NCBI GenBank assembly: GCA_964560005.1
Contig: CAZLKB010000004.1
Location: forward strand, 76,112 to 140,111
Direction of reading: 5' to 3'
Source of the DNA: an uncultured Gammaproteobacteria bacterium
Lineage (GTDB): Bacteria > Patescibacteriota > Patescibacteriia > Patescibacteriales > GWC2-42-12
DNA: 64,000 bases
Part shown: positions 8,904-36,600 of the stretch, piece by piece
Layout: each line of letters begins with the position of its first letter
Numbering within the stretch: the stretch's first letter is position 1
Made by a program: the position numbers and the translations under genes
The notes under the pieces: model-generated
Told to the model about the DNA's origin: nothing
Seen by the model: the letters and a program-made list of their open reading frames with translations, nothing else
Databases searched by the model: none

Positions 8904-11900
8904 TTACTTTACTACAATATTCACCAACCTCCCCTTCACAAAAATCACTTTCTTTACTTCTTTGCCTTCAAGCCACTTCTTTATTTTTTCACTTTCTAAA
9001 GCAATTTTTTTAGCGTCTTCTTCGCTAATATTAACACTAACCTTCGCAGTATCTCTGACTTTTCCGTTAACCTGAATAACCAGATTAATCATTTCGTCGT
9101 GTGCTAATTTCGGATCATACTTAGGCCAGGTTTCTTTAAAAATACTTTGTTGATTGCCCAGTTTAACCCACAGTTCTTCCGCCAGATGGGGCGCGAACGG
9201 CGAGAGAACTATTAAAAATTTCTCCGCAGCCGCGCGCGGCATGGAATCTAACTTACCCGCGAAATTCATAAAAATCATCATTTGGGAGATGGCAGTATTA
9301 AATTTCATAGCTTCAATATCCTCGGTAACCTTTTTTATAGTTTTATGAAGTAATTTTGGCATGCCCTCGGGAACATTCTGACTAGGCTTTTTTCCGCTAC
9401 CGCCCGCCTGCCGGCCTACCTGTCCGATAGGCAGGCTAGACAAGCAATCAACAAATTTAACATTTATATAAAATTCAAAAATCTTTTCCAAAAATCTTTT
9501 CGCGCCCGCCAGTCCATCCGTACTCCAAGCGATAGCTTGATCAAACGGCCCCATGAACATTTCATAAACGCGCAAGGCGTCTGCGCCGTACTGTTTAACG
9601 ATATCATCTGGATTAATGACATTACCCTTTGATTTTGACATCTTCACTCCGCCCTCGGCTAAAATCATGCCATGCGAAGTCCGCTTGGCGTAGGGTTCGC
9701 TGGTCGGCACCAGGCCCAGGTCAAACAAAAATTTATGCCAAAAACGAGAGTATAGAAGATGTAAAGTCGTATGTTCCATGCCGCCGTTATACCAATCAAC
9801 CGGGATCCAATATTTAAGCTTTTTAAAATCAGCGAATGCTTTTTTGTTTTTTGGATCAGTGTAGCGCAAATAATACCAGCTTGAACCGGCCCAATTCGGC
9901 ATGGTATCGGTTTCTCGCTTGGCCTCGCCGCCGCAGCGCGGACACTTAACATTGACCCAGTCGGTAATGGCCGCTAGCGGCGATTCGCCCGTGTTGGTCG
10001 GTTGATATTTCTCCACCTTAGGCAATTCAACCGGCAAGTCTTTTTCCGGAATCGGCACATAACCGGTATTTTTCGCGCGCCCTACCCATTCCAACAATTC
10101 CGGAATTTGCTCGCCGAGAAAATGCCCGAAACCGTCCCACACTTCAAAATCCCATTCCTTAGGAATATGATCGTGGGTATAGAGCGGCACTGAATCGTCG
10201 TCTCTAGAAATCACTATTCTGATTTTATCGGCATATTCGGTAACTTTATTTAGGTCTATTTTCTCAAGCCAAAATTTCTGAAGAGCGTCTATATCCGAGC
10301 CTGTCCATTCCTGGCGCATTCTTTCCCAATCTCTGGGCGACAATTCTCCGATCGCCGAACCGATAAGCAATAAATGTCCAATTTTCTTTTTTGCCTTTAA
10401 TAAAAGATGCAAGGCGGCCTTACTGCCTAAACTATGCCCGATCACAATATCATCCGGGCTGAAATCTTTAATCAGAGGCAAAAGTTCTTTCATCCACTTT
10501 TTCAAATCAGGGTGGTCGGCGGTGGTCATGGTCGGTAGCCTAACCTCAAAACCGCGTTTCTCTAATTCATTTTTCAGCCAGGGTTTCCATTCACTGTCGC
10601 CCCGCCCCTCAAAGCCGTGGATTATCAAAACTTTTTGTTTAACCTTTTTACAATTTTCGCAGAATACCACCGGAATAGGCTCGCCCCAATAATGCTGACG
10701 CGAAAAAACCCAGTCGCGTAGTTTATAATTTACTTTTCTCGCCCCAATTTTTTCCTTTTCCAGCCACTCAGCCATTTTTTCACGGGCTTCAGCTGAATTG
10801 AGGCCGTTATAATCGCCAGAATTAAATAAAATACCATCGTTCGTATAAATTTTTCTTTTAATAAACTTATCAAAAAGATACTTGTGCAGTTCATCCGCAA
10901 CTTTTTGTTCCGCCTCTTTTTCGCTTAACCACTCAACCTTAAATTTATTTTGTTCGTTTTTCTCCAATTTTTGCTCAATTTTTTCCTCATCAACCAAGTC
11001 AAAAAGAAAACCCGTTGCTTCAATATTTCGCTGCACATTTTTTGAATGAGCGAAATAGTGATGATGTATTTTCTCGGATTGTTCCACTAATTTCACATTT
11101 TTATAACCCGTCTCTTCTTTGATTTCCCTTAAAGCGCACTTTAAAGCATCTTCTTTACTATTTAAACCGCCGCCAATAAATAAATTTCCGCCCAAATTTG
11201 ATCCCCAATTAATAGAAAGTAATTTTTTGGTTTTAGGATTCCTGACGATTGCGACAATACTCTCTCTGAATTCTTCTTTTTCCCGAGGTTTGCCTGTAAT
11301 CGGCTCAATCGTATAAACAATTTTCAAGCCGTACTTTTTGGCAAAATCAAAATCCCTCTCGTCGTGCGCCGGAACAGCCATGACTGCGCCAGTGCCGTAA
11401 TTGACCAAAACATAATCAGCAATCCAAACCGGAATTTCCTCGCCATTCAACGGATTGATCGCCTTAATTCCTTTTAATTCTACTCCGGTTTTCTCTTTTA
11501 CCTCTGCCGCTCTCTCTAAATCAGACTTCTCTTTCGCAGCTTCCAAATATTTTTTTACCTCTGACCAATTTGTTATTTTAGCCCTTAATTCTTGGGTTAA
11601 CTCATGCTCTGGAGATAAAACCACATAGGTGCATCCAAAAATTGTATCAAGACGAGTCGTAAAAACTTTAATTCGTAATTCGTAATTCTTAATTCTAAAT
11701 TCTATTTCCGCTCCTTCCGACCGCCCGATCCAATTCTGCTGTTGAATTTTTATTTTTTCCAGATACTCCAGCGGCCGCCGGCCCAATATTCTGGGCAGAA
11801 GATTTTCTTGGAGCGCCTGGCGGACTTTTCTATAGCGCACCTCGTCTGGTTGTTCCGATTTATATAAACCGGTTTTAGGATCTTTAATTAACGCTTCGGT

Positions 11901-13046
11901 CGGATAGCCGGGAGTAAAGGAGGGCGCTTCTATATTTTGCAAAATATATTCATAAGGAACGGCCTCAAACGACGCCGTGCCCGAACCGTCGGTGAAGGCC
12001 ATGGCATAATGGAAATTAGCGCGCGATTGCCCTTTTTCCCGGACGAATTTTTTCAAATAGTCAATCACTTCCCTGTCGCTGGCGCGCGGGCTTCGCGGAT
12101 TGGCGTGCTTTCTGATATGCAAGACATAGCCGTTATTTTCCGGCCACTTTTCTATCCAAAAAATATGATCGGTTGAAATGGTCGGCAAGCCGGTTTTTTT
12201 AAAATAAAATTCCGATTTCATCCGGGCGTTTTTAATCGGATCATCGCCCTCAATCAGCCGGCTATCGTCAACCGCGGTCAAGTCGTCTAAAGTAACAAAG
12301 ATTATTGACGGGACATGCGCCAGGCAGTTCTTAATCATTTTTACCTTAGCCGGATTTCGCGTGCCTATTAAAATTTTTTTTGGCTCTTTCCCGCCGCCCA
12401 GGGTCGCGATGGCCATATCCAAATCCCTATCCAACCGGTCGGCGTATTTCGTGATAGCCAGCATCCATTGATCTTTTTCCCGCTTTTCCGCCGGCGTACC
12501 GCATCTTTCGCAGCTGCCATCAACCACCTCTTCGTTGGCCAGGCCGATTTTACACGACGGACACCAATTAATGGACATTTTTTTCTTATACGCCAATCCT
12601 CTCTTTAATAATTGTAAAAATATCCATTGCGTCCATTTATAATATTCCGGGTCGGTAGTATTTATTTCCCGATCCCAATCAAAAGAAAAACCCAGCTCTT
12701 TAAGCTGGCGCCGGAAAGTGTCCGTATTCTTCTTGGTTACGGCTATGGGATGTGTGCCTGTTTTGATAGCGTAATTCTCCGTGGGCAAGCCGAAAGCGTC
12801 CCAGCCAATCGGGTAGAGCACATTATATCCTTCTAAACGGCGCTTGCGGCAGATTATGTCCATGGCCGTATTGGAGCGGATGTGGCCGACATGAAGCCCT
12901 TCCCCTGACGGATAAGGAAATTCAATCAAACCATAAAATTTAGGCTTTTTATCGCCATCAATCGCTTTGGCAAACTGATTTTTCTCCCAATATTTCTGCC
13001 ACTTAGCCTCTATTTTTTTGTGGTCATATTTCTCCATAATACTCAT
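8904..13046 (-). CDS. leuS: Leucyl-tRNA synthetase with three inserted hydrolase-type domains
   Basis: 1380 aa. HIGH region 'PYPSGEGLHVGH', CP1 'VFTTRLDTIFGCTYVVLSPEH..GTGAVMAVPAHDERDF', 'YKLRDWVFSRQHYWGEPIP' and 'KMSKS' are all present. Extra modules lie at aa ~211-426, ~583-735 (Nudix box) and ~800-993 (GHSLG serine hydrolase). Confidence 0.9.
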   Translation of the reverse strand: MSIMEKYDHKKIEAKWQKYWEKNQFAKAIDGDKKPKFYGLIEFPYPSGEGLHVGHIRSNTAMDIICRKRRLEGYNVLYPIGWDAFGLPTENYAIKTGTHPIAVTKKNTDTFRRQLKELGFSFDWDREINTTDPEYYKWTQWIFLQLLKRGLAYKKKMSINWCPSCKIGLANEEVVDGSCERCGTPAEKREKDQWMLAITKYADRLDRDLDMAIATLGGGKEPKKILIGTRNPAKVKMIKNCLAHVPSIIFVTLDDLTAVDDSRLIEGDDPIKNARMKSEFYFKKTGLPTISTDHIFWIEKWPENNGYVLHIRKHANPRSPRASDREVIDYLKKFVREKGQSRANFHYAMAFTDGSGTASFEAVPYEYILQNIEAPSFTPGYPTEALIKDPKTGLYKSEQPDEVRYRKVRQALQENLLPRILGRRPLEYLEKIKIQQQNWIGRSEGAEIEFRIKNYELRIKVFTTRLDTIFGCTYVVLSPEHELTQELRAKITNWSEVKKYLEAAKEKSDLERAAEVKEKTGVELKGIKAINPLNGEEIPVWIADYVLVNYGTGAVMAVPAHDERDFDFAKKYGLKIVYTIEPITGKPREKEEFRESIVAIVRNPKTKKLLSINWGSNLGGNLFIGGGLNSKEDALKCALREIKEETGYKNVKLVEQSEKIHHHYFAHSKNVQRNIEATGFLFDLVDEEKIEQKLEKNEQNKFKVEWLSEKEAEQKVADELHKYLFDKFIKRKIYTNDGILFNSGDYNGLNSAEAREKMAEWLEKEKIGARKVNYKLRDWVFSRQHYWGEPIPVVFCENCKKVKQKVLIIHGFEGRGDSEWKPWLKNELEKRGFEVRLPTMTTADHPDLKKWMKELLPLIKDFSPDDIVIGHSLGSKAALHLLLKAKKKIGHLLLIGSAIGELSPRDWERMRQEWTGSDIDALQKFWLEKIDLNKVTEYADKIRIVISRDDDSVPLYTHDHIPKEWDFEVWDGFGHFLGEQIPELLEWVGRAKNTGYVPIPEKDLPVELPKVEKYQPTNTGESPLAAITDWVNVKCPRCGGEAKRETDTMPNWAGSSWYYLRYTDPKNKKAFADFKKLKYWIPVDWYNGGMEHTTLHLLYSRFWHKFLFDLGLVPTSEPYAKRTSHGMILAEGGVKMSKSKGNVINPDDIVKQYGADALRVYEMFMGPFDQAIAWSTDGLAGAKRFLEKIFEFYINVKFVDCLSSLPIGQVGRQAGGSGKKPSQNVPEGMPKLLHKTIKKVTEDIEAMKFNTAISQMMIFMNFAGKLDSMPRAAAEKFLIVLSPFAPHLAEELWVKLGNQQSIFKETWPKYDPKLAHDEMINLVIQVNGKVRDTAKVSVNISEEDAKKIALESEKIKKWLEGKEVKKVIFVKGRLVNIVVK
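9406..9436. repeat. GCCTGCC...GGCAGGC hairpin in frame inside leuS
   Basis: It encodes 'LPIGQVGRQAGG'. The same CCTGCCTACCGGCAGGCAGG-type hairpin is intergenic near 32860 and 51420. Confidence 0.65.
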
Positions 13047-13121: not shown

Positions 13122-13889
13122 TTAGGTTTTTACTTCTATGCCAACTGGACAATGATCCGAACCCATGATTTTATCCATGATAAAAGCGTCTTTCACTGTC
13201 TTACTTATGCCTTTTGAAACGCAAAAATAATCTATGCGCCAGCCGATGTTTCTGGCTCGTAAATTAAAACGATAACCCCACCAGGAATATTGAACTTTAT
13301 TTTTATTAACCTGCCTGTAGGTATCGGTAAAACCTGAGCTTAAAAATTTTGTCATCCAAGCGCGTTCTTCATCCGTAAAACCCGGATTGCCGATATTATC
13401 TTTCGGCCTGGCCAAATCAATCTCCTCGTGCGCCACATTAAAATCTCCGCACAAGATAACCGGTTTAGCCTTTTCCAATTTCTTAATATATTTCAAAACC
13501 TTATCGTTAAATGCCAATTTATAATCAAGCCGGGATAATTCATGATTGGCATTGGGAAAATATGTATTAACCAAGTAAAATTTTTCAAACTCCACGGTCT
13601 GCGCCCGCCCTTCGCGGTCAAAAACCATCTCACCCAAGCCATTTTTCACCGAGAGCGCCGGCAAACCGTTCTTTATTAATATTGCCGTACCGCTATAGCC
13701 AGGCCTTTCGGCCGGATGCCAAAATTCTTGATATCCTTGAAAATCAAACTGCTCCTTGGCTCTGGCCGCATCATCAATTTTAATTTCCTGCAAACATAAA
13801 ATATCCGGCTTTTCCTTTCGTAAAAAACCGGAAAAATCTTTTTTTACCGCCGCTCTGATGCCATTGACATTCCAGGAAATAAATTTCAT
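13122..13889 (-). CDS. xth: Exodeoxyribonuclease III
   Basis: 'MKFISWNVNGIR', 'DILCLQE', 'GDFNVAH' and 'SDHCPV'. The ORF extends to 13910, but M8 fits the usual family N-terminus. Confidence 0.85.
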   Translation of the reverse strand: MKFISWNVNGIRAAVKKDFSGFLRKEKPDILCLQEIKIDDAARAKEQFDFQGYQEFWHPAERPGYSGTAILIKNGLPALSVKNGLGEMVFDREGRAQTVEFEKFYLVNTYFPNANHELSRLDYKLAFNDKVLKYIKKLEKAKPVILCGDFNVAHEEIDLARPKDNIGNPGFTDEERAWMTKFLSSGFTDTYRQVNKNKVQYSWWGYRFNLRARNIGWRIDYFCVSKGISKTVKDAFIMDKIMGSDHCPVGIEVKT

Positions 13890-13962
13890 AGATATAAATC
13901 GGTAAAACAATAGGCCTAATCCTTGGAAAGAACTAAGCCCATCTTATCGTACTGAAAATTAT

Positions 13963-14604
13963 CTATACTTTGCAGGCCGGACCGCGAGATTTATCTTCAC
14001 TATTTTTATTCTGCATCTCATCTTGAATAATCGGCGCTATGACATCTTTGTGCATGCTATATTCGCAAAAAACCGCCACAGCAATAACCGTGGTCCAAAG
14101 ACCGTCCTTATTACCTTCGGCCGATTGACAGATGTTACAAGTATTGATGATGTTGCCGCTGGCCTTATAAATCTGCTCTCTCTCCTCCCAGGCCTTGGCT
14201 GAATCAAACTCAATGCCTAGGGTGGTAGCTAACATCGTAGCCGCCAAGTCTTCGGCATACTCGCCGCTTTTTTTTGCTACTTCGCCGAAAGCGTGATGTT
14301 CGGACAAATAGCCGTAATTATTGTGGTCGCTCGGCCTGGCCAAGCCGATGGCCGCGGAGATCAACCGATTGGGCTCGTTGGTTTCGCTTCTGGCTAAAAC
14401 GCAAAAGACTATTTGACCGGGGTAGAGCATCTTCTCGCCTTTTTCCTTTGAAGTGATGTGACAATTAGGCGGCATAATACTGGAAACGGTCACTAAATTA
14501 TGTTTTTCAATACCAGCATCCCTAAGAGCCAGCTCGAATGAGGCTAAGCGGTCTTTATGAACGCCGACTCCTTTGGTTAAAAACATTTTCTTAGGTGTGA
14601 ACAT
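13963..14604 (-). CDS. pdaD: Pyruvoyl-dependent arginine decarboxylase
   Basis: '[27 protein letters not shown]' contains the self-cleavage Ser-Ser motif of PdaD proenzymes. Confidence 0.8.
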
Positions 14605-15619: not shown

Positions 15620-15710
15620 GTCATTGCGGGCTTGACCCGCAATCCAGAAACTTTTTTCAAACACTAGAATCTGGATTCCGGCTCGCCTTCGGCTTTAAGG
15701 CCGGAATGAC
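15620..15710. repeat. GTCATT...AATGAC-bounded GC-rich composite hairpin element
   Basis: GTCATTGCGGG-CTTGA-CCCGCAAT, TCCAGA..TCTGGA and ATTCCGGC..GCCGGAAT hairpins. The terminal AATGAC supplies a spurious ATG for porG. Confidence 0.8.
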
Positions 15711-15720
15711 AAATAACCAT

Positions 15721-16260
15721 ATGATTGAAATACGAATTCACGGCCGGGGCGGCCAGGGCGCGGTTACCGCCGCCGAACTAATTGCTATTGCCGCTTTTAA
15801 GGATGGATTGCAGGCTCAAGCTTTTCCTTCTTTCGGCGTGGAAAGAACCGGCGCTCCGGTAGAGTCGTTCGCTAGGATTGATGATCGGCCGATTTTAACC
15901 AGAGAGCAAATTTATGCGCCGAATGTTTTAATTGTTCAAGACTACACCCTGCTTTCTACTGTGGACATCACCAGAGGAGCCGATAAAAAAACTATTATGA
16001 TAATTAATACGGCTAAAGCTAAAGACGAATTGAAAATAAATTTACCGGAAAATAATATTTACACGATTGACGCGACTAAAATCGCTTTGGAAATAATCGG
16101 TAAAAATATAGTTAACACCGTGATTCTCGGAGCTTTTGCCAAAGCCACAGGACTGGTTAGCTTAAAATCGCTCTTGGAGGCTGTAGAGGAAAAATTCGCC
16201 GGTAATGAAAATTTAATTGCTAAAAACATTGAAGCCATCAAACGGGCTTATGAATTATAA
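15721..16260 (+). CDS. porG: Pyruvate:ferredoxin oxidoreductase gamma subunit
   Basis: 'MIEIRIHGRGGQGAVTAAELIA'. The ORF-track start at 15706 lies inside the repeat element. Confidence 0.85.
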   Translation: MIEIRIHGRGGQGAVTAAELIAIAAFKDGLQAQAFPSFGVERTGAPVESFARIDDRPILTREQIYAPNVLIVQDYTLLSTVDITRGADKKTIMIINTAKAKDELKINLPENNIYTIDATKIALEIIGKNIVNTVILGAFAKATGLVSLKSLLEAVEEKFAGNENLIAKNIEAIKRAYEL

Positions 16261-16262
16261 CT

Positions 16263-16535
16263 ATGAAAATACCAATTAATGTACGGCCAAATACAACTTT
16301 AGCTAATAAAACCGGGGCTTGGCGCACGCTCAAACCGAAATTCCTGCATGATAAGTGCGCCGCCTGCGGCGTCTGCGCCAGAGTCTGCCCCGAAGGTATT
16401 ATTTATCAGACCGACGAGGCCAACGGCAGCGGTAAAAAATATTTTGAATGTGATTTATCTTATTGTAAAGGCTGCGGCTTATGCGCTATTGAATGCCCGT
16501 TTAAGGCGATCGTAATGGAGCTAGACCAGAAATAA
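16263..16535 (+). CDS. porD: Pyruvate:ferredoxin oxidoreductase delta subunit (2x[4Fe-4S])
   Basis: Two ferredoxin motifs, 'CAACGVCARVCP' and 'CKGCGLCAIECP'. It starts 2 nt after porG. Confidence 0.85.
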   Translation: MKIPINVRPNTTLANKTGAWRTLKPKFLHDKCAACGVCARVCPEGIIYQTDEANGSGKKYFECDLSYCKGCGLCAIECPFKAIVMELDQK

Positions 16536-16689
16536 AATTTTCAATTTTCAAGTACCAATTTTCAATGAATTTTCAATTTACAATTTACAATTTACAATGA
16601 AAACTTTTTCTTTGTTTGAAAATTAATTCATTGGAACTTCATTGAAAATTGGGATTTGAAAATTTATTGATATTTAACTTTACATTTTT
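16536..16689. repeat. AT-rich palindromic module, family B (AATTTTCA / TGAAAATT words)
   Basis: AATTTTCAATTTTCAAGTACCAATTTTCAATGAATTTTCAATTTACAATTT... is mirrored by ...TTCATTGAAAATTGGGATTTGAAAATTT. It ends in TTTAACTTTACATTTTT directly before the porA ATG. Confidence 0.85.
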
Positions 16690-17931
16690 ATGAATAAACC
16701 CCAGATGCTAGAGGGCTCACGCGCCATCGCCCTGACTATCAACAATATTAAACCCACGGTTATTTCCGCTTATCCGATCACGCCGCAAACGCATATCGTC
16801 GAAGACCTGGCTAAATTTAAAGCCGACGGCCAAGTTGAATACGAGTATGTTAGGGCTGAATCGGAATTTGCCGCCGCTTCAATCGTGGCCGGCGCCTCGG
16901 CGGCCGGGGTCAGGACTTATAGCGCCACCAGTTCGCAAGGGCTTCTCCTAATGGCTGAAGTGATTTTTAATATCGCCGGCATGCGCTTGCCCGTGGTGAT
17001 GACTTGCGCCAATCGCGCGGTTTCCGCGCCGATTAATATTTGGAACGATCAGCAGGATGTGATGGCTATTAGAGACGCGGGCTGGATTTTACTTTTTGCC
17101 GAAAATCACCAGGAAGCGGTTAATCAGCATATTATGGCTTTTAAAATCGCCGAGCAGCTTAAAATACCGGTAATGGTCAATGTAGACGGGTATATTATGA
17201 CCCATACTTATGAACCGGTGATCATTCCTACGGCCGAACAGATAAAAAAGTATTTGCCTGATTATAAACCAGCGGCCGGACAATTTTTAGACACGAAAAA
17301 CCCGGCAACCTTAGGCGCCCTGGCCACGCCGGCTCATTATCTGGAAATTCGCCAGGAACTGCACGACGACCTAATCGCCAGCCTTAAAACCATTAAACAA
17401 GAATATGACAGTTTTAATAAAATCATTCCTTCATTAAAAATTAAAAATTACAAAATTAAAAATTTTAGTAAAACTTCAATAATAGTTGATACTGGGTTGT
17501 TTGAATATACCGGTCCTAAATCTCCACGAACAGTGCTGGTTGCCATGGGTTCGGTCGTCGGCACTATTAAAGACACTGTCAGCAACTTCCCCCCTGACAA
17601 GGGGGGCAAGGGGGGTTTTTCCTCTGGCGGAAAAGATGAGAGCAAGGTTGGCATTTTAAAAATCAAAGCTTTTAGGCCTTTTCCGGCAGATCAAATCCTT
17701 AAAATAATTAAACCGGCCAAAAATATTGCCGTGATAGATAAATCCATCTCCTTAGGTCATATCGGAACGCTAGCCTCAGACATTAAAGCCGTAGCTCAAG
17801 GAAAAATCAATGCTAATATTTCCAGTTTCGTCGTCGGCCTGGGGGGGCGCGATATTACTAAAGAGATAATTAAAAAAATTATTAAATTAGCCAATAGAAA
17901 AAGCGACGGAGCGCAATTTATTGGAAAATAA
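16690..17931 (+). CDS. porA: Pyruvate:ferredoxin oxidoreductase alpha subunit with repeat-derived inserts
   Basis: 'EGSRAIALTI...AYPITPQT.IVE', typical of PorA. Extra segments are 'SLKIKNYKIKNFS' (nt ~17434-17466) and 'FPPDKGGKGGFSSGG' (nt 17589-17615). Confidence 0.9.
   Translation: MNKPQMLEGSRAIALTINNIKPTVISAYPITPQTHIVEDLAKFKADGQVEYEYVRAESEFAAASIVAGASAAGVRTYSATSSQGLLLMAEVIFNIAGMRLPVVMTCANRAVSAPINIWNDQQDVMAIRDAGWILLFAENHQEAVNQHIMAFKIAEQLKIPVMVNVDGYIMTHTYEPVIIPTAEQIKKYLPDYKPAAGQFLDTKNPATLGALATPAHYLEIRQELHDDLIASLKTIKQEYDSFNKIIPSLKIKNYKIKNFSKTSIIVDTGLFEYTGPKSPRTVLVAMGSVVGTIKDTVSNFPPDKGGKGGFSSGGKDESKVGILKIKAFRPFPADQILKIIKPAKNIAVIDKSISLGHIGTLASDIKAVAQGKINANISSFVVGLGGRDITKEIIKKIIKLANRKSDGAQFIGK
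17589..17615. repeat. CCCCCC/GGGGGG mini-hairpin in frame inside porA
   Basis: CCCCCCTGACAAGGGGGGCAAGGGGGG. Confidence 0.7.
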
Positions 17932-18067
17932 ATTAATTTTCAATTTACAATTTTCAATGAATCTACAATTAATTAATTTTCAAACAAATTTTTTGTAGCT
18001 GTTTGAAAATTTAAACATTAAATCATTGAACATTGTTAGAAAATTGAAAATTGAAAATTGAAAATTT
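17932..18067. repeat. Family B palindromic module
   Basis: AATTTTCAATTTACAATTTTCAATGAA... is mirrored by ...GAAAATTGAAAATTGAAAATTGAAAATTT. It forms the left border of the block inserted in the por operon. Confidence 0.85.
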
Positions 18068-18661
18068 ATGCTTAAGTCTTTCCCCAAAATATTAATTATC
18101 GCCTTTCTCTCAATTTTTATTATCCAATCATTCTGTTTAATTTTATTGTTAACTTTACCCCTGGCTAGCCAGGCAGCCGAAATTAAATTCATACCGCAAG
18201 TCGGCATTCCTAATTCTGAATTTGACGCGGGTAAAGGTTACACTTTTGTTAAAGATGACTCTACCGCGCCGATTGCTAAATATATTAAAGCCATTTATCA
18301 ATACGGTATCGGCATTGTCGGCATCTTGGCCGCCGTGGTCTTAATGTACGGCGGCGTGCTCTGGATCGTGGCCGGCGGCAACGCCTCGCAAGTCGGCGAA
18401 GCTAAAGCCTGGATCGGCGCCGCCCTGACCGGCCTGATTTTAGCCCTGACTTCTTATATGATTTTAAATACAATTAACCCCGCGCTGGTGAATTTGCAGA
18501 CTACGCCGGTACCGGGGGTGAAAGAAGCGCCTGCTACTGATAAGGGCTGTTGTATAACGCCAGATGCTACAAACGAAAATAACACCGAGGACGAATGTAA
18601 GTCAAAGGCTGGCGCTACCCAGGATTATGACTGGAGTGAAATAATGTGCCCTATAACATAA
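18068..18661 (+). CDS. VirB2/TrbC-like (CPR 'T4SS pilin'-like) membrane protein with a Cys-rich C-terminal tail
   Basis: 197 aa. Signal peptide, then 'YIKAIYQYGIGIVGILAAVVLMYGGVLWIVAGGNASQVGEAKAWIGAALTGLILALTSYMILNTI', which is two hydrophobic helices joined by a short polar loop. The tail is 'CCITPDA..ECKS..IMC'. Confidence 0.55.
   Translation: MLKSFPKILIIAFLSIFIIQSFCLILLLTLPLASQAAEIKFIPQVGIPNSEFDAGKGYTFVKDDSTAPIAKYIKAIYQYGIGIVGILAAVVLMYGGVLWIVAGGNASQVGEAKAWIGAALTGLILALTSYMILNTINPALVNLQTTPVPGVKEAPATDKGCCITPDATNENNTEDECKSKAGATQDYDWSEIMCPIT
18281..18504 (+). repeat. 224-bp segment 100% identical to 19187-19410
   Basis: Read base by base, from TATATTAAAGCCATTTATCAATACGG to AATTTGCAGACTAC. The flanks are unrelated. 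Confidence 0.95.
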
Positions 18662-18844
18662 CAATCTTATTAATTTATAATAAAATATTAATTACTTACT
18701 TTTCCAATCACGCCGAGAATAATTTTACATTCTAAAAAACATAAAATAAGTTTTTATAAAAACCGGTTGGAGTGGCTATAGCTATGCCGAAAAAATTTGG
18801 TAGAAAAACCGGACTCATAACTATACCCACCAATAATAAAATTT

Positions 18845-19744
18845 ATGTTTAAATTAATTTCCAAAATTGTTGTTATAATTTTTCTTTCAATCTTATTTTT
18901 TCAAATCAATACAACATATGCCGCAAATGAATGCGTCTGGGCGTATAAAATTAACGGCCTATGCAGTGCACAGGGTCTAGGTTATGATGTAGCTGATAAC
19001 AGTTGCTCTAATGTCAGTAAACCCCTGGGTTGCGCGGGTGGTGCCAATTTTTCTTGTAAATGTTGCTGTACAACAAAGTCCGAGTCATCATCCGCTTCAA
19101 AAACTGGAATTAACTTTAAGCCTCAAGTTGAGGGGCTGACTTATAATTTTAACAATTCCGATACTACTACCGGCAATATCGCCAACTATATTAAAGCCAT
19201 TTATCAATACGGTATCGGCATTGTCGGCATCTTGGCCGCCGTGGTCTTAATGTACGGCGGCGTGCTCTGGATCGTGGCCGGCGGCAACGCCTCGCAAGTC
19301 GGCGAAGCTAAAGCCTGGATCGGCGCCGCCCTGACCGGCCTGATTTTAGCCCTGACTTCTTATATGATTTTAAATACAATTAACCCCGCGCTGGTGAATT
19401 TGCAGACTACCAGTGTGCCGGGGGTGACAGAAATGGCAACTGGTAGTTGCACTACTCCTGCAGATTTGGATACAGGAAACGTTACCTGTACAGATAACGT
19501 TTTAAAAGAAAATTGTAAATATAACTTCGCAAAAGGTGAAACGTGTCCTCAGGCGTGCTGTCTTTGGGGAAAATTTGGAACAAGAGATCTTTGGAATGGT
19601 TGCTTTGCTTCAAAAAATTTAATTGAAAGTGATTGCAAAAGAACTGGTGGGTCTGATGCATTATATATACCTAACGCTGCAAATATCGCGTGTCAAATTG
19701 ATAAATTGAATAGCAGTATATATACTGGATGTACAAAAAAATAA
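18845..19744 (+). CDS. VirB2/TrbC-like pilin paralog with Cys-rich N- and C-terminal ectodomains
   Basis: 299 aa with the same hairpin core as 18068-18661. The N-terminal part is 'ECVWAYKINGLCSAQ..CSNVSKPLGCAGGANFSCKCCC' and the C-terminal domain carries about 11 Cys. Confidence 0.55.
   Translation: MFKLISKIVVIIFLSILFFQINTTYAANECVWAYKINGLCSAQGLGYDVADNSCSNVSKPLGCAGGANFSCKCCCTTKSESSSASKTGINFKPQVEGLTYNFNNSDTTTGNIANYIKAIYQYGIGIVGILAAVVLMYGGVLWIVAGGNASQVGEAKAWIGAALTGLILALTSYMILNTINPALVNLQTTSVPGVTEMATGSCTTPADLDTGNVTCTDNVLKENCKYNFAKGETCPQACCLWGKFGTRDLWNGCFASKNLIESDCKRTGGSDALYIPNAANIACQIDKLNSSIYTGCTKK
19187..19410 (+). repeat. 224-bp segment 100% identical to 18281-18504
   Basis: See the paired feature at 18281-18504. 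Confidence 0.95.
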
Positions 19745-19745
19745 T

Positions 19746-19861
19746 TATGCTATACTTTACTAAATACGCTGACCCGCCTACACTAAAGCTACCGCGGGTA
19801 AAAAATAAATTTATCTTGAATATAACTTATAATTTATGCTCTACTTTACTAAATACGCTGA
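19746..19861 (+). repeat. 27-bp direct duplication of the start of the next gene, flanking a GC hairpin
   Basis: TATGCTATACTTTACTAAATACGCTGA (19746-19772) against TATGCTCTACTTTACTAAATACGCTGA (19835-19861). Between them lies ACCCGC-N16-GCGGGT. Confidence 0.85.
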
Positions 19862-20051
19862 AAATAAATTTGATATCCTAAACAAGCATAAAGTTTTTTT
19901 TACGCGAGAACAGGTTGAAGACGCTGTGGCCACGCCGGACAAACCGGGCAGAAAAGCCGGATTTCTAACAATTAAAAAGGATAATATTAAAGTTATTTAT
20001 AAAAAAGAGGCTGGAGTGATTAAAATAATCACTTTTTATCCAGTTAAATAA
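19836..20051 (+). CDS. DUF4258-like small protein (putative toxin component)
   Basis: 71 aa. The pattern 'F.KYA..K...... ...V..A...PD...... ...IKVIYKKEAGVIKIITFYP' resembles the DUF4258 family. Confidence 0.5.
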   Translation: MLYFTKYAENKFDILNKHKVFFTREQVEDAVATPDKPGRKAGFLTIKKDNIKVIYKKEAGVIKIITFYPVK

Positions 20052-20167
20052 TCCGAATACTACAATTGATAAGCGAATACTACGAATAAAATGTTTAAGG
20101 TAAAAATTAGGTGAATAGTTTTTGTAGTATTTGGATATCATTTGTAGTATTCGGATTATAATATTAT
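20052..20167. repeat. AT-rich palindromic module (GAATACTAC words)
   Basis: AATCCGAATACTACAA ... TTGTAGTATTCGGATT is a perfect 16-bp inverted repeat, with further inner word copies. Confidence 0.85.
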
Positions 20168-20377
20168 ATGCAATACGACGCTGAAACCAATATTTTAAGC
20201 TGGGAAATAACCAAAGATCCAATTGACCGCTGTTTGGAGCTCGGCAATTTTATTATCCACTTGTCAAAAGGAAAAAAACCGGTTTTAATTGAAGTACTAA
20301 ACGCCTCAAAGTTCGTGGGGCAGATGGACAAAATAAAACTTGAGAGTATAAAAAAACAGATGATGGAAACGAACTAA
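20168..20377 (+). CDS. DUF2283-like small protein (putative antitoxin component)
   Basis: 69 aa. 'MQYDAETNILSWEI...PVLIEVLNASKF' matches the DUF2283 pattern (YD.E.D.L.. .....IEIL.AS). Confidence 0.55.
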   Translation: MQYDAETNILSWEITKDPIDRCLELGNFIIHLSKGKKPVLIEVLNASKFVGQMDKIKLESIKKQMMETN

Positions 20378-20546
20378 CTAATTTTCAATTTTCAATTTCT
20401 AAACAATTTCCAATGTTAAAATTATTCAATTTTTTAAACAGTCGCAATATATTAGTTTGAAAATTAGAGCATTAAGTCATTAAAAATTGTTTGAAAATTG
20501 AAAATTGGGATTTGAAAATTAATAAATTTGGATAAAAAAGTAAAGT
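20378..20546. repeat. Family B palindromic module
   Basis: AATTTTCAATTTTCAATTTC... is mirrored by ...TTGTTTGAAAATTGAAAATTGGGATTTGAAAATT. It shares GAAAATTGGGATTTGAAAATT with 16536-16689 and forms the right border of the block inserted in the por operon. Confidence 0.85.
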
Positions 20547-21497
20547 ATGAATAATATAATAACAGTCAAAAAATCATCTGATTCTAAAAAAACCCTCCTC
20601 TCCCCCGGCCATAGGGGTTGCGCCGGCTGCGGCCAGATGATCGCGGCTCGGCTGGTAGTCGACGCGCTCGGACCCAATACTATTATTGCCAACGCCACCG
20701 GTTGTTTGGAAGTCGTCACTACGGCTTATCCGGAAAGCTCCTGGGGCATGCCCTGGGTGCATTCGCTTTTTGAAAATGCCTCCGCCGTGGCCAGCGGAAT
20801 TAGAGCGGCATTGGATTATAAGGAAAAAAAATCTCCCCAAACCACTCTTGCTAAGGGGGGCGTTAAAGTAGTTGCGCAGGGCGGTGATGGCGGCACTTTT
20901 GATATCGGCTTCGGCTTAATTAGCGGCATGTGGGAACGGGGCGAAAATATTTTATATGTTTGCTACGATAACGAAGGTTATATGAACACCGGGGCTCAAG
21001 CGTCTGCCTCTACTCCTTGGGCGGCCAATACCACCACTACTCCAGCCGGCAGTTCACCTGAATTAGCCGGCATGGGCTCGCATTTTATGAAAAAAAATAT
21101 GCTGGCGATCGCTTTAGCTCATGGCTTAAAATATGTGGCCCAAACCACAGTCGCCTACCCTCTGGATATAGTAAAAAAAGTAAAAAAAGCCATTGCTACA
21201 CCGGGTCCGTCATACCTGCAGATTCTAGTGCCCTGCATCCCGGGCTGGAAGACTGAACCAAAAGACACTATTCAATTAGCTAAATTAGCCGCTCTAACCG
21301 GAATCTACCCGGTTGTGGAATATATTAATGGCCAGCTGTCCGAAGTCGTAAAAAGGCCGGCTGATTATCCTCGAGTTGAAGAATATCTAAAGCCCCAGGG
21401 CCGATTTAAGCATTTATTTCGCGATGAACGCGGTAAAGAGCAAATCGCCTATATCCAAAAATTGGCGGATCAGAATACGAAAAAATATAATTTGTAA
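20547..21497 (+). CDS. porB: Pyruvate:ferredoxin oxidoreductase beta subunit (TPP-binding)
   Basis: 'GHRGCAGCG', 'GGDGGTFDIGF' and 'CYDNEGYMNTG'. An extra 'KKSPQTTLAKGGVK' comes from a CCCC..GGGGGG hairpin at 20835-20860. Confidence 0.9.
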   Translation: MNNIITVKKSSDSKKTLLSPGHRGCAGCGQMIAARLVVDALGPNTIIANATGCLEVVTTAYPESSWGMPWVHSLFENASAVASGIRAALDYKEKKSPQTTLAKGGVKVVAQGGDGGTFDIGFGLISGMWERGENILYVCYDNEGYMNTGAQASASTPWAANTTTTPAGSSPELAGMGSHFMKKNMLAIALAHGLKYVAQTTVAYPLDIVKKVKKAIATPGPSYLQILVPCIPGWKTEPKDTIQLAKLAALTGIYPVVEYINGQLSEVVKRPADYPRVEEYLKPQGRFKHLFRDERGKEQIAYIQKLADQNTKKYNL

Positions 21498-33644: not shown

Positions 33645-36600
33645 CTATTTACTTTGAATCGCTTGTATTTGCATTTTTAAATCATCAATTTGCTTTTGCT
33701 GTTCCAGGTTTTGCCTCTCTAAAGCCTGAATCCTTTCGTCGTGGACTAGGAACTTCTTAAACAAATCTTCAACCTTGGCCGCTAGATTGCTTAAAGCGGC
33801 GGCCAATTCTTTAATCGCTTCAACTATAAAAGCTTCAATACCCTGCTTTTCCAGCGATTTATAGCCGTTTTGATCGGTTTTAACCCATTCGGGAAAAACT
33901 TTTTCCACATCTTGGGCGATAAAGCCGCGCTGCAAGCCCTCTCCCCGGCTTTTATCTTTCCAATAGAAACTGACGCCCTGTAAGCTGGTTATTTTATCAA
34001 GAGAGCCCTCCAGCGGCTGAATCATTTCCTTCAGTCTGGCGTCAGAGATCACTGCCCAGACTCCTGTGGTATTGGCGGCACTGCCGTCTTTAGTAAAAAT
34101 TATCTGGTCATCAAGATTCCAAAATCTTAATTCGTCGGTCTCATCGTCTTGATAAATCCCCCAATAGGGGCTATCGGCGCTCTGGATTTCAATTTCTGCG
34201 TTGCCGCTGGCGGTTTTTAGATGCACTAATTTATTCGGCGCCGCCGTGCCTATGCCTAAAAAGCCGGAAGCGTTGAAAACCGCCTGAACCGCGTTAGAGC
34301 TGTTTTTTATCTCCATTATATTGGCCGTTTGGCCTCCTGAATAACCATAGAGCGCTAGGGCCGGGACATTTACGCTCAAATTATTGATGCCGGCGATAAC
34401 CATAAGCGAAGCGGCGTCGCAGACGCTTTCCTGGCATGCGATCGCTGAAGGATTAGCTGCCGTATGCCTATTGCCGAGCACCTCGATACCATAATAATTG
34501 AACATTCTGATGCCATAATTAGAAATTGTCTGTATTCCAGACTGCTCATTCACCCAAAAAGACGGCATCACCACCTTGCCGGCATTCGTAAAATCGGTCT
34601 GATAAAACTTCCTGCCGGAATCGCCGAAGAATAAATAGCTATTTCCGGCGGCGTTAGTTCCCGCGATATGCAAGTCGTTATAGTTTGTATTAAGCCCTTT
34701 AACGGCATATATCTGCGCCTGCTGTGTCGGAAAATCCGGGCTGGAAAGAAGAAGCTTGGCATTTACCTTGTCGTATTGAAAAGTAGTGCCGATACCCACA
34801 TCGCCGCCGGCATAATTTATTCCTCCGGCAACATCAGCCCACTGGCTGGTGGCGGCCGGCCAGCTGGTTCTGGTCACTCCTCCCAAACGGATGCCGCCCG
34901 AACTCATGTCTAGAGCGGCTTGCGGATTAGTCGTGCCTATGCCCACATTGCCGCTTGCATTGATAAAAACCTTAGGCGTATCGGCTGATTCAACGGTATT
35001 ATCAGGAAAAAAAGCAATACCGCCGTTATTAGCGCCAATCCGAAGCCAATTACCGTTAACTTTGGCCACCAACGATAGATCATTGTTCCTGCCTAAACCC
35101 ATAAACCCTTTAAGCGCTGTCCCGTCATTCGTATAGAAATTAACATCATTATTATTCCAAAGACCGATACTGCCGTTATTTACGCTTAATTTCTGGGCTG
35201 GCGCCGCTGTGCCGATGCCCACATTGCCGTTTTTAAGCACGGTCAGGGCGTTAGACGGACTGCCGGCGGCCGTCCCGTTGCCTACGATAAACAACGGATC
35301 GGTCGCTACCCAGCTATCCACGGTCCCGCTAATAACATTATATTGCCCAAATACCGCCGAAGCGTAGGCTTGAGCCGTGGTATGAGCGCCGAAGGCGGCT
35401 GAATAGTTGCCGCTAGCGCCGTTATCAAATCCGCCGCCGACAAAAGAATATTGTCCTTGCGCAATATTTAACTTTCCTCCACTAACTGCGGCCGAAAGGC
35501 CTATCGCTTGGTTTCCCTGCCCGCCACTGATTGTAGAATAATCGCCTTGAGCGATACTCTGCCGAGTAGGTATAACATCTGTTGCCGGTCCGCCTCCGGA
35601 TACTACGGAATAACCGCCTAAAGCGTGGTTGTCTCTCCCGCCGCCGACAAAAGAATGAGCGCCGTCGCTACTGTTATTGCTGCCGCCGCCAACGAAGCTG
35701 ATAGACCCGCCGGCAAAATTATTTTGCCCCGCTGCAAAACTGTTATCTCCGCTGGCATTGTTGTTTTGCCCGAAAGCAACGGAATAGTTACCGATATTAT
35801 CATTATTCCATTGTGCTCCGTTAACATAGCCTGCTCTAAACGCGGCTTTCCTGGGATACCAAAAAAGCCTTGTGCCCGCGCTTAGATTAACTTCTGTCCA
35901 GCCTTGGCCGAACTCGCCTACGGCCAAAATATCCCCTCCTGAAACGATTTCAATCGCCGTCCTTGGTTCCGTAGTACCAATGCCAATACTGCCGTTGCGG
36001 GCTATGGCAAACTTGTATTCAAAAGCAGGATCGATTTGAGAATCGTGCAAACCGAAATTTTGTGAATTTTGAAAATACCAATTGCCTGTTGATTTACTAA
36101 AACCTATGCGACCGGTATAACCGTCATTCAAAACTTTATTTGTATTTAATAAACTATCCCAATAGGAATTAGCGTATAAAATAAAATTACCACTCTTAGC
36201 GTCAGCGAGAGTCATTCTACCGTCAACGTGAAGAGTATTCTTTGGAGTTGATGTGCCGATGCCGACCTTTCCCGAATTATAATAAATATCACTTTCGGAA
36301 GTTGTCCATTGGCTATTACCAAACAAAATACCATTTTTACGTAAATTACCAGTAAAATTAATATCACCGGCAACGGCTAATTTATAGCCCGGACTCGTCG
36401 TCCCGATGCCGACATTACCGGTTGTATTTTGTAAAACTATTTTTCCGGAGTTATCATCAATAAACCAAAGGCTGCCAGCAACGTTAGCCACCTCATAATC
36501 CTCAGATCCAGCCGATAAATTAACACCAGCACTTCCTCCGCTTGACGAAATATTTAAATATCTGGTTATAGAAGAGGGTGAAAAAGGATTATTCGTTCCA

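Follow-up and report, generated by a model that had tools for sequence, protein, structure and literature searches.

Aminoacyl-tRNA synthetases (aaRSs) are among the most conserved enzymes, and their editing domains and zinc modules, which are internal insertions, serve as textbook cases of functional accretion. Free-standing trans-editing factors, AlaX and YbaK, are also known. The aaRS add-ons described to date either have aminoacyl-tRNA or aminoacyl-adenylate as their target or are attached at a terminus. An isoleucyl-tRNA synthetase with a GNAT domain (NCBIfam NF040702, ileS_w_GNAT) and the editing domains of the class Ia and class II synthetases combine an aaRS with an extra hydrolytic or modifying activity, and placement inside the connective peptide (CP) is a known theme. 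Bacterial leucyl-tRNA synthetases (LeuRSs), as seen in Thermus thermophilus (Tt; 1h3n and 2byt) and Escherichia coli (4aq7), comprise a Rossmann core with the HIGH and KMSKS motifs, the zinc module ZN1, the CP1 editing domain after ZN1, and anticodon-binding and C-terminal domains. A 2026 survey of domain insertions states that the LeuRS editing domain occurs only inserted in other domains and itself hosts none (PMC13114784). Here we analyzed a leuS gene of a Patescibacteria genome (GCA_964560005.1, contig CAZLKB010000004.1). It lies in a stretch of 64,000 nucleotides, positions 76,112 to 140,111 of the contig, which is called the window in this text. The gene encodes a LeuRS with three embedded hydrolase-type domains.

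The query LeuRS has the same core, zinc, editing, anticodon-binding and C-terminal domains as the bacterial enzymes named above, but it carries 554 additional residues in the form of three enzymatic domains at Tt positions 208/210, 367/375 and 443, and it lacks the leucine-specific domain. Contrary to the statement of the survey, its editing domain hosts a Nudix domain, and relatives have Ham1-like, Ser-hydrolase or nuclease domains there as well. Compared with the known aaRS add-ons, the domains are generic nucleotide and ester housecleaning enzymes, number up to three per protein, are internal, and are interchangeable between loops. A hydrolase-loaded LeuRS of this kind was not found described in full-text literature searches. 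This is consistent with an earlier note on this DNA, made from the sequence alone, which knew of no description of the architecture, though such sequences are abundant in public databases, mostly annotated just as LeuRS. LeuRS and each of the Pfam families are already known; the novelty lies in the architecture and in its genomic logic. We consider it probable that the gene product is a functional Patescibacteria LeuRS displaying three complete, apparently competent hydrolases, which are selectively coupled to leuS and belong to a lineage-wide modular system.

The leuS gene encodes a bacterial-type LeuRS with three inserts

Judged by its sequence, the query is a bona fide bacterial-type LeuRS. 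The whole protein scored 989.6 bits with the equivalog model TIGR00396 (leuS_bact), above the cut-off of 548.4. Pfam recognized the class I catalytic, LeuRS editing (PF13603, 219.7 bits) and anticodon-binding domains and, in the same protein, NUDIX (aa 594-725) and Ser_hydrolase (aa 806-971). The query was compared with solved structures by phmmer, and Tt LeuRS (1h3n) served as the reference for the insert borders. Five blocks are colinear with the Tt enzyme (Table 1). The three inserts amount to 554 aa and the leucine-specific domain of ~45 aa is absent, which together account for the excess length of ~500 aa. Of the class I motifs, HVGH (corresponding to HIGH) and KMSKS are both invariant in an alignment of 50 sequences. 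The editing motifs, the T-rich TTRLDT and the conserved Asp motif AHDERD, are intact.

The open reading frame (ORF) has no internal stop, and an identical 1380-aa product is encoded on a Logan contig of run SRR12133404, an independent assembly. An AlphaFold2 (AF2) model of query aa 1-1200, built with 50 homologues, had a predicted local distance difference test (pLDDT) score of 88 and a predicted template-modelling (TM) score of 0.73. The three inserts scored 85-98, and the score dipped at the junctions. The LeuRS core of the model superimposed on Tt LeuRS with a target-normalized TM score of 0.71.

The possibility of an intein or another self-splicing element was rejected. No Hint or intein match in Pfam was found at E <= 1, either with the whole query protein or with the isolated inserts, and the junctions lack the residues that an intein requires, Cys, Ser or Thr as the first residue of the insert and His-Asn before Cys, Ser or Thr at its C-terminal end: the inserts begin with M211, P587 and K801, and their C-terminal junctions read RP/L, KR/K and NT/G. 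A search of the leuS DNA for flanking direct repeats or target-site duplications gave only short low-complexity chance matches, none of which brackets a junction. The description of the gene in the earlier note thus stands in its main points. The ORF scan and the identical Logan ORF bear out the single uninterrupted 1380-aa frame, and the TIGR00396 score, the five Tt blocks and the motif positions bear out the colinear blocks with canonical motifs. The Tt alignment agrees to within a few residues with the places given there for three discrete inserts, and their lack of intein hallmarks is borne out by the Hint-free scans and the junction residues.

Table 1. Coordinates of the leuS gene, its LeuRS segments and its inserts in the window
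Feature	Residues (aa)	Nucleotides	Strand	Alignment to Tt LeuRS (1h3n)	Remarks
Complete leuS ORF	1380 aa + stop codon	8904..13046	(-)		ATG start; ORF scan
N-terminal catalytic segment	1-210	12417..13046	(-)	aligns to Tt 1-208 (block: query 4-210)	
HVGH (HIGH)	52-55	12882-12893	(-)		in N-terminal segment
ZN1 Cys4 motif CPSC...CERC		12501-12563	(-)		in N-terminal segment
Insert 1, site A	211-425	11772..12416	(-)	Tt 208/210	Ham1/ITPase-fold, NTP-pyrophosphatase-like
CP1 editing domain, first part	426-586	11289..11771	(-)	Tt 210-367	PF13603; VFTTRLDT; Asp motif GTGAVMAVPAHDERD
Insert 2, site B	587-731	10854..11288	(-)	Tt 367/375	Nudix hydrolase domain; inside CP1 editing domain
Nudix box GGLNSKEDALKCALREIKEETGY	626-648	11103-11171	(-)		exact GX5EX7REUXEEXGU match
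CP1 end and return to catalytic core	732-800	10647..10853	(-)	Tt 375-443	includes YKLRDWVFSRQHYWGEPIP
First CxxC (CENC)		10650-10661	(-)		in aa 732-800
Insert 3, site C	801-994	10065..10646	(-)	Tt 443	YdeN/RBBP9-type alpha/beta serine hydrolase
GHSLG	870-874	10425-10439	(-)		nucleophile Ser872
LeuRS remainder	995-1380	8907..10064	(-)	Tt 443-593 (query 995-1144) and Tt 637-877 (query 1135-1380)	core with KMSKS, anticodon-binding and C-terminal domains
Second CxxC (CPRC)		9933-9944	(-)		after insert 3
KMSKS	1135-1139	9630-9644	(-)		in aa 995-1380

The inserts resemble ITPase-fold, Nudix and YdeN/RBBP9-type hydrolases

Within the catalytic core, insert 1 immediately precedes the strand leading to CP1. 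The isolated insert scored 23.7 bits with Ham1p_like (PF01725; E 5e-5), marginally above the cut-off of 22.5, and its homologues carry a precomputed PF01725 match. A single-sequence search of the PDB gave noise only (PKC iota, E 1.6). A profile of 21 homologous inserts matched the dITP/XTP pyrophosphatase 6wwd (E 4.9e-9), Coxiella Ham1 and E. coli RdgB (1k7k, E 3e-6). The AF2 model of the insert had a mean pLDDT of 92.1, and the top 32 Foldseek matches of this model were all Ham1/RdgB/ITPA proteins or the Ham1-like KomBC, with TM scores of 0.7-0.8 (maximum 0.80); Maf proteins were clearly more distant. On the evidence of profile and model, the Ham1/ITPase-fold identity of insert 1 is firm.

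Across the 21 inserts, T229, N231, K234, E266, G267, D269, N273, A274, K277 and D293 are invariant; these belong to the phosphate/Mg motifs. The TxNxxK, ExGxxxxxNAxxK and catalytic Asp motifs of ITPases are likewise kept in the clade of insert 1. In the same alignment, the position of the KxxE glutamate is a near-invariant Met, and the SHR position is RYR or variable. SHR is the C-terminal motif for base recognition and purine specificity, and the KxxE glutamate is a motif of ITPA and RdgB. The insert shares the fold and the phosphate/Mg motifs with the Ham1/ITPase/RdgB enzymes (PF01725; 6wwd, 1k7k, 4bnq and human ITPA), but it is only ~18-21% identical to them, has Met for the KxxE Glu and lacks SHR. 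Its family is furthermore embedded in LeuRS or adjoins leuS, whereas those enzymes are encoded by independent housekeeping genes. By sequence, insert 1 is a divergent member of the ITPase fold, and specificity for ITP or XTP should not be assumed.

Insert 2 lies inside the editing domain. In isolation it scored 51.8 bits with NUDIX (PF00293; cut-off 21.1, E 1e-13), and its AF2 pLDDT was 85-95. A further motif, HHHY, is nearly invariant in its clade of Nudix domains. Of the 92 embedded homologues, 72 have the strict Nudix box; the others, which retain EExG, make up a separate 'Q-type' subfamily. When the closest inserts were combined into a profile, its matches in the PDB were weak and box-dominated: AvrM14 (1.7e-5), an Ap4A hydrolase (2.5e-4), ADPR pyrophosphatases and Dcp2. 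With Nudix hydrolases such as the Ap4A hydrolases and the RppH/Dcp2-type enzymes, insert 2 shares a perfect Nudix box and a full-length domain match; it differs in that its profile matches place it in no characterized subfamily, in the added HHHY motif and in being nested in the LeuRS editing domain. No genuine close stand-alone Nudix was found in a word-indexed protein search with the isolated insert, which returned only short proteins. Three free-standing candidates were rejected: P0162 and P0163 are LeuRS fragments, as judged by their LeuRS flanks, and P0164 (locus L093), by its genomic context, is a piece of a leuS broken by many frameshifts on a long-read contig. The G+C content of the Nudix stretch (window 10750-11250) is 0.34, compared with ~0.40-0.50 in the rest of leuS and ~0.47 in the Ham1-like stretch. 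This may reflect a Lys/Glu/Asn-rich composition or a different history.

Insert 3 splits a Cys4 zinc knuckle, as it follows directly after the first CxxC (CENC) and precedes CPRC. The isolated insert scored 59.5 bits with Ser_hydrolase (PF06821; cut-off 22, E 5e-16) and matched Bacillus subtilis YdeN (1uxo) with an E value of 1.2e-10. Its AF2 pLDDT was 90-98. The key residues are the oxyanion HG at 810-811, Ser872, Asp949-951 (DDD) and His975 (GHF, 974-976). Among 51 embedded homologues, the Ser is kept in all 51, the His in 49 and the HG motif in 46. A word-indexed protein search with the isolated insert returned only short proteins. Free-standing RBBP9/YdeN proteins of 181-183 aa share 39% identity over 94% of the insert and, since these small relatives cover nearly all of it, insert 3 corresponds to a whole enzyme. 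It thus has the full enzyme size, the Ser-Asp-His triad and the HG oxyanion of the YdeN/RBBP9 enzymes (PF06821; YdeN 1uxo and human RBBP9), but it sits inside the zinc knuckle of an aaRS. According to the passage of PMC7730578 that refers to Shenoy et al. (2020; PMID 32196348), human RBBP9 hydrolyzes valacyclovir, a nucleoside analogue esterified with L-valine. Valacyclovir is also a substrate of BPHL, another alpha/beta hydrolase, which is an efficient homocysteine thiolactonase (PMC4198189).

The domain assignments of the earlier note hold. Its textbook Nudix box is an exact consensus match within a 51.8-bit PF00293 domain, and its YdeN/RBBP9-type hydrolase with all catalytic positions is confirmed by the PF06821 score, the 1uxo match and the location of the triad and HG motif. 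Its tentative Maf/Ham1 call for insert 1 has become firm for Ham1 through profile, AF2 and Foldseek, Maf proteins being clearly more distant.

Insert-bearing LeuRSs recur among Patescibacteria

LeuRS homologues numbered in the thousands in a search of 5.8 billion proteins, and the best 120 (935-1536 aa) were analyzed. Each was aligned to the insert-free query core, and inserts of at least 60 aa were classed with jackhmmer. All 120 carry one or more extra domains, in Pfam combinations that include NUDIX, Ser_hydrolase, Ham1p_like and HAD. The named homologues come from Parcubacteria/Paceibacterota, Taylorbacteria, Falkowbacteria, Pacebacteria and metagenome-assembled genomes (MAGs) of the 'Patescibacteria group', and it is these names that place the query in Patescibacteria/Paceibacterota. 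The survey of LeuRSs from related candidate phyla radiation (CPR) genomes, a check that the earlier note had proposed, shows the insert-bearing architecture recurring in many independent assemblies, with combinations of the modules in well over a hundred independent LeuRSs and with the catalytic residues kept.

At least five recurrent insertion sites were distinguished. Site A, after RLDRDLD at Tt 208, holds Ham1-like (18) or Nudix (3) domains. Site A2 lies ~40 residues further downstream, in the hairpin before VFTTRPDT, and holds Ham1-like domains (19, two of them with a Ser hydrolase), Ser hydrolases (10, including those two) and Nudix domains (3). Site B, at Tt 367-375 inside CP1, is occupied by Nudix (86) and in a few cases by HAD, and site C, at Tt 443, by Ser hydrolases (43). 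Site D, after the second CxxC, is unused in the query; in the leuS gene of a Candidatus Taylorbacteria locus (L030; 5636-9151 of JARIGV010000032.1), it holds an HAD_2-like domain between KCPSCE and KAKRETNTMP. At site B the L030 gene carries a Nudix domain, and it is preceded by a separate ham1-like gene. Across the 120 homologues and L030, the loop used by a given domain family thus varies from lineage to lineage. Some LeuRSs combine two Nudix domains that differ in subtype. In 6 of the 120 homologues, as in the query, sites A or A2, B and C together carry the three types of module. P0022 is a seventh with all three modules, the Ser-hydrolase pieces being at another site.

Rarer inserts at site A2 are in-frame nuclease domains. 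In P0106, aa 236-413 hold a PDDEXK_3 (PD-(D/E)XK) nuclease (109.6 bits), and in P0066, aa 237-585 hold a DUF559/Vsr-like domain (113.8 bits) beside a Ser hydrolase. The Ser-hydrolase module of P0066 is flanked by a duplicated peptide, PSPALPEGEGE. The nucleases and the duplicated peptide are hints at how modules might get inserted.

Each query insert shares 64-69% identity with its nearest relative, and in the same proteins the LeuRS core shares 59-69% with the query core. As far as sequence comparison goes, the inserts are under strong purifying selection and are conserved about as well as the essential core. The best partner differs from insert to insert (P0003/P0004 for the Ham1-like domain, P0045 for Nudix and P0007 for the Ser hydrolase), and the distribution of modules is patchy on a neighbor-joining tree of the LeuRS core. 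This suggests mosaic module histories; since the core identities span just ~59-70%, mosaic descent is suggestive only.

Some homologues are misnamed after an insert, as 'non-canonical purine NTP pyrophosphatase' or 'alpha/beta fold hydrolase'; most are called 'leucine--tRNA ligase' or 'class I tRNA ligase family protein'. One entry, P0172, is an artefact in which a LeuRS/Ham1-like part (the first ~137 residues equal the L089 LeuRS) is joined to a class II LysRS-like segment.

Close stand-alone relatives of the Ham1-like module lie directly upstream of leuS

The Ham1-like profile was run exhaustively, as a hidden Markov model (HMM), against 1.84 billion cluster representatives and found 3299 relatives. 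The best 150 comprise 17 LeuRSs or LeuRS fragments, 108 free-standing proteins of ~200 aa and 25 other small multidomain proteins; all hosts longer than 700 aa among them are LeuRSs. Each of the five close stand-alone forms immediately precedes a leuS gene in the same orientation, at a distance of 11-100 nt. Three consist of the Ham1-like domain: P0169 (205 aa, 25 nt before a 787-aa leuS, known from gene calls only, without DNA), P0171 (L002; 204 aa, 11 nt) and the Ca. Taylorbacteria gene of L030 (202 aa, 30 nt). The other two are fusions, P0167 (L090; 405 aa, 40 nt) with the Ser hydrolase preceding the Ham1-like domain, and P0180 (L092, GCA_054028255.1; 413 aa, 100 nt) with a Ham1-like domain of a different clade preceding the Ser hydrolase. 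As both proteins fuse the two domains, in opposite orders, the Ham1-like domain and the Ser hydrolase are also linked to each other. The leuS genes downstream of the stand-alone forms have no insert at site A or A2 in any of the four readable cases (L002, L030, L090 and L092). The stand-alone forms upstream of leuS span two Ham1-like clades that are only ~22% identical.

Twenty-five Patescibacteria species-representative genomes have a close Ham1-like match. In 24 the match is inside leuS, and the 25th is L030. The reading frame runs uninterrupted through the embedded domain and the LeuRS blocks in 23 of these 24, the exception being L026, whose N-terminal block lies in a different frame. Where the ORFs upstream of leuS could be scored at loci with an embedded Ham1-like domain, none encoded any of the three hydrolases. 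A metagenome scan with the stand-alone Ham1-like alignment found three loci, two embedded in leuS and one running off the contig end.

Random domain accretion is unlikely given the combination of embedding in alternative loops, the position immediately upstream of leuS and the fusion of one hydrolase to another. These patterns in the sequences indicate a selected association of the hydrolases with each other and with leuS.

Other arrangements of the Ham1-like domain were also seen. P0204 (672 aa) contains three in tandem, and P0187, P0197 and P0209 (300-520 aa) have N-terminal regions of 100-310 aa before it. On three ENA contigs (ERZ1426827, ERZ1426847 and ERZ1426631), the gene for P0175, a member of the ATNNxxK clade, follows genes for LexA, a Y-family polymerase (IMS; LexA-DinB operon) and a peptidase S66 (LD-carboxypeptidase/MccF family).

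Genomic neighborhood of leuS

The neighbors of leuS in the window are ordinary chromosomal genes, which encode exonuclease III, pyruvoyl-dependent arginine decarboxylase, DsbA-like, KsgA, topoisomerase I, DprA and RpoB/RpoC proteins, as well as a MurE-like ligase, FtsH, PFOR subunits and a type IV pilus ATPase. This neighborhood fits a Patescibacteria genome. No tRNA gene was found in the window.

Immediately upstream of leuS, at 13963-14604 and 13122-13910 on the minus strand, are the genes of an exonuclease III-family protein (Exo_endo_phos) and of a pyruvoyl-dependent arginine decarboxylase (PvlArgDC), and the order of these three genes is the same on the Logan contig. The PvlArgDC family is best known from archaea. 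The PFOR genes occupy 15706-21497 on the plus strand (POR gamma, 15706-16260; POR_N/PFOR_II, 16690-17931; TPP-binding subunit, 20547-21497). Between them lie an ORF at 18068-18661 and another at 18845-19744 with a T4SS_pilin-like domain. A 1414-aa protein with a C-terminal Peptidase_S74 domain and EPTP/DUF6242-like repeats is encoded at 33645-37889 (minus strand). Peptidase_S74 is the intramolecular chaperone of endosialidase and tail-fibre proteins, and the 1414-aa protein may be a phage-tail-fibre-like or self-processing surface protein in a CPR chromosome.

Discussion

Sequence comparison and structure modelling establish, in our view, the architecture, the predicted folds, the conserved catalytic residues, the recurrence and the linkage to leuS. 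By inference from the sequences, the hydrolases would be active, and the tie to LeuRS would extend from co-expression to their chemistry. In the mechanism we propose, the inserts would be retained in the mature protein, and the LeuRS scaffold would charge tRNALeu and edit normally. Modules of the ITPase-like, Nudix, HAD and YdeN/RBBP9 types would be inserted in permissive LeuRS loops or encoded directly upstream of leuS, and would carry out nucleotide and ester 'housecleaning' beside LeuRS or co-expressed with it. The compounds hydrolyzed might be non-canonical NTPs, NDP-X or Ap4N-type by-products, and amino-acid esters or thioesters. The substrates might be Ap4N by-products, NTPs that compete with ATP, or aminoacyl esters and thiolactones released by editing. 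Further candidates are aminoacyl-nucleotide inhibitors that target LeuRS, for example TM84 from agrocin 84; TM84 bound to E. coli LeuRS is a solved structure (3zgz), which was among the structure matches.

A stronger form of this proposal is that in Patescibacteria LeuRS is the hub of a dedicated small-molecule proofreading or detoxification unit, a third 'editing' layer, with the modules selected to stay attached, physically or by shared transcription, in any loop or neighbor position. The modules would then act on compounds made at, or aimed at, the LeuRS active sites, such as Ap4N, nucleotides derived from non-cognate adenylates, amino-acid esters or thioesters (mis-acylated nucleotides or homocysteine thiolactone, for example) and Trojan-horse aminoacyl-nucleotide antibiotics of the agrocin-84/TM84 type. 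We put this forward tentatively and think it rather unlikely.

Several observations weigh against coupling of functional hydrolases to leuS. The list of 120 homologues is skewed to insert-bearing LeuRSs because the inserts add to the score. Specificity for ITP or XTP is doubtful for the Ham1-like clade because the SHR motif and the KxxE glutamate are lost, and by these residues its substrate may be another compound. The weak and scattered PDB matches of the Nudix profile assign no substrate class to insert 2. No adjacency to leuS was shown for the stand-alone Ser-hydrolase relatives P0123, P0125 and P0161 (39% identity), or for the more distant Ham1-like proteins P0175 and P0176, the contigs of P0175 ending within the downstream gene. 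The five adjacency cases may share ancestry. Finally, the position upstream of leuS and the fusions are equally expected from simple co-expression with an essential gene.

The last point leads to the explanation that the fusion is one of convenience. In small, regulation-poor CPR genomes, generic housecleaning enzymes with no chemical tie to leucylation could have been joined to leuS, as operon partners and then as inserts, only for constitutive co-expression and retention. This fits most of the data. All module types come from generic house-cleaning or metabolite-repair families, distant free Ham1-like genes stand in unrelated contexts such as the LexA-DinB operon, and the stand-alone Ser-hydrolase relatives are not linked to leuS. 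Many different loops are used, which suggests that the position relative to the LeuRS active sites is immaterial, and the CP region of class Ia enzymes is already known to tolerate insertions as a host (PMC13114784). What it leaves unexplained is why the partner or host is always leuS and not another essential gene. The hosts above 700 aa among the best 150 of the 3299 Ham1-like relatives are all LeuRSs, and the five close stand-alone forms, from two clades of ~22% identity, are all upstream of leuS. An ancestral ham1-leuS operon kept by inertia could produce such a pattern, but at this divergence we would expect gene order to have eroded unless selection maintained it. We thus see convenience as a possible explanation, though a doubtful one.

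The nucleases at site A2 and the PSPALPEGEGE duplication bring to mind selfish or mobile domain cassettes, that is, homing-endonuclease-like invaders that enter hot-spot loops of leuS in frame and are kept because their removal breaks an essential gene. The occurrence of one domain family at different sites, patchy on the LeuRS core tree, and the lack of correlation between insert identity and core identity would agree with this. The query itself, however, has no Hint/intein or nuclease signature in Pfam scans, and its DNA junctions lack flanking direct repeats. The catalytic residues of all three modules are strongly conserved, the inserts are about as conserved as the core, and the stand-alone versions are ordinary genes upstream of leuS, all of which makes such an origin very improbable. 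An artefact or decay, either as a chimeric assembly or as pseudo-enzyme inserts serving as structural spacers, is effectively refuted. Some family entries are clearly artefactual, namely the P0172 chimera and the frameshifted leuS fragment P0164, but a second assembler gave the identical ORF, and dozens of independent MAGs from different studies have the same in-frame architecture. The AF2 models are confident, and the catalytic motifs are intact and conserved. Significant HMM and structural similarity, recurrence and retained catalytic residues also run counter to the refuting conditions named in the earlier note. Its functional suggestion, that the modules add clearance of adenylates or Ap4A or a further deacylation activity, is a conjecture. 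A functional LeuRS with attached, apparently competent hydrolases remains the reading we prefer.

These proteins matter for annotation, as pipelines name some of these LeuRSs after an insert. More broadly, LeuRS has been furnished with entire housecleaning enzymes, as many as three in one protein, time and again across a whole bacterial radiation. Should the link prove functional, this would suggest that leucylation in these organisms, which salvage all their nucleotides, involves a by-product, damaged metabolite or inhibitor that has so far gone unrecognized. If it is non-functional, these LeuRSs would be a natural case of multi-site tolerance to domain insertion in an essential enzyme, which would be useful for protein engineering.

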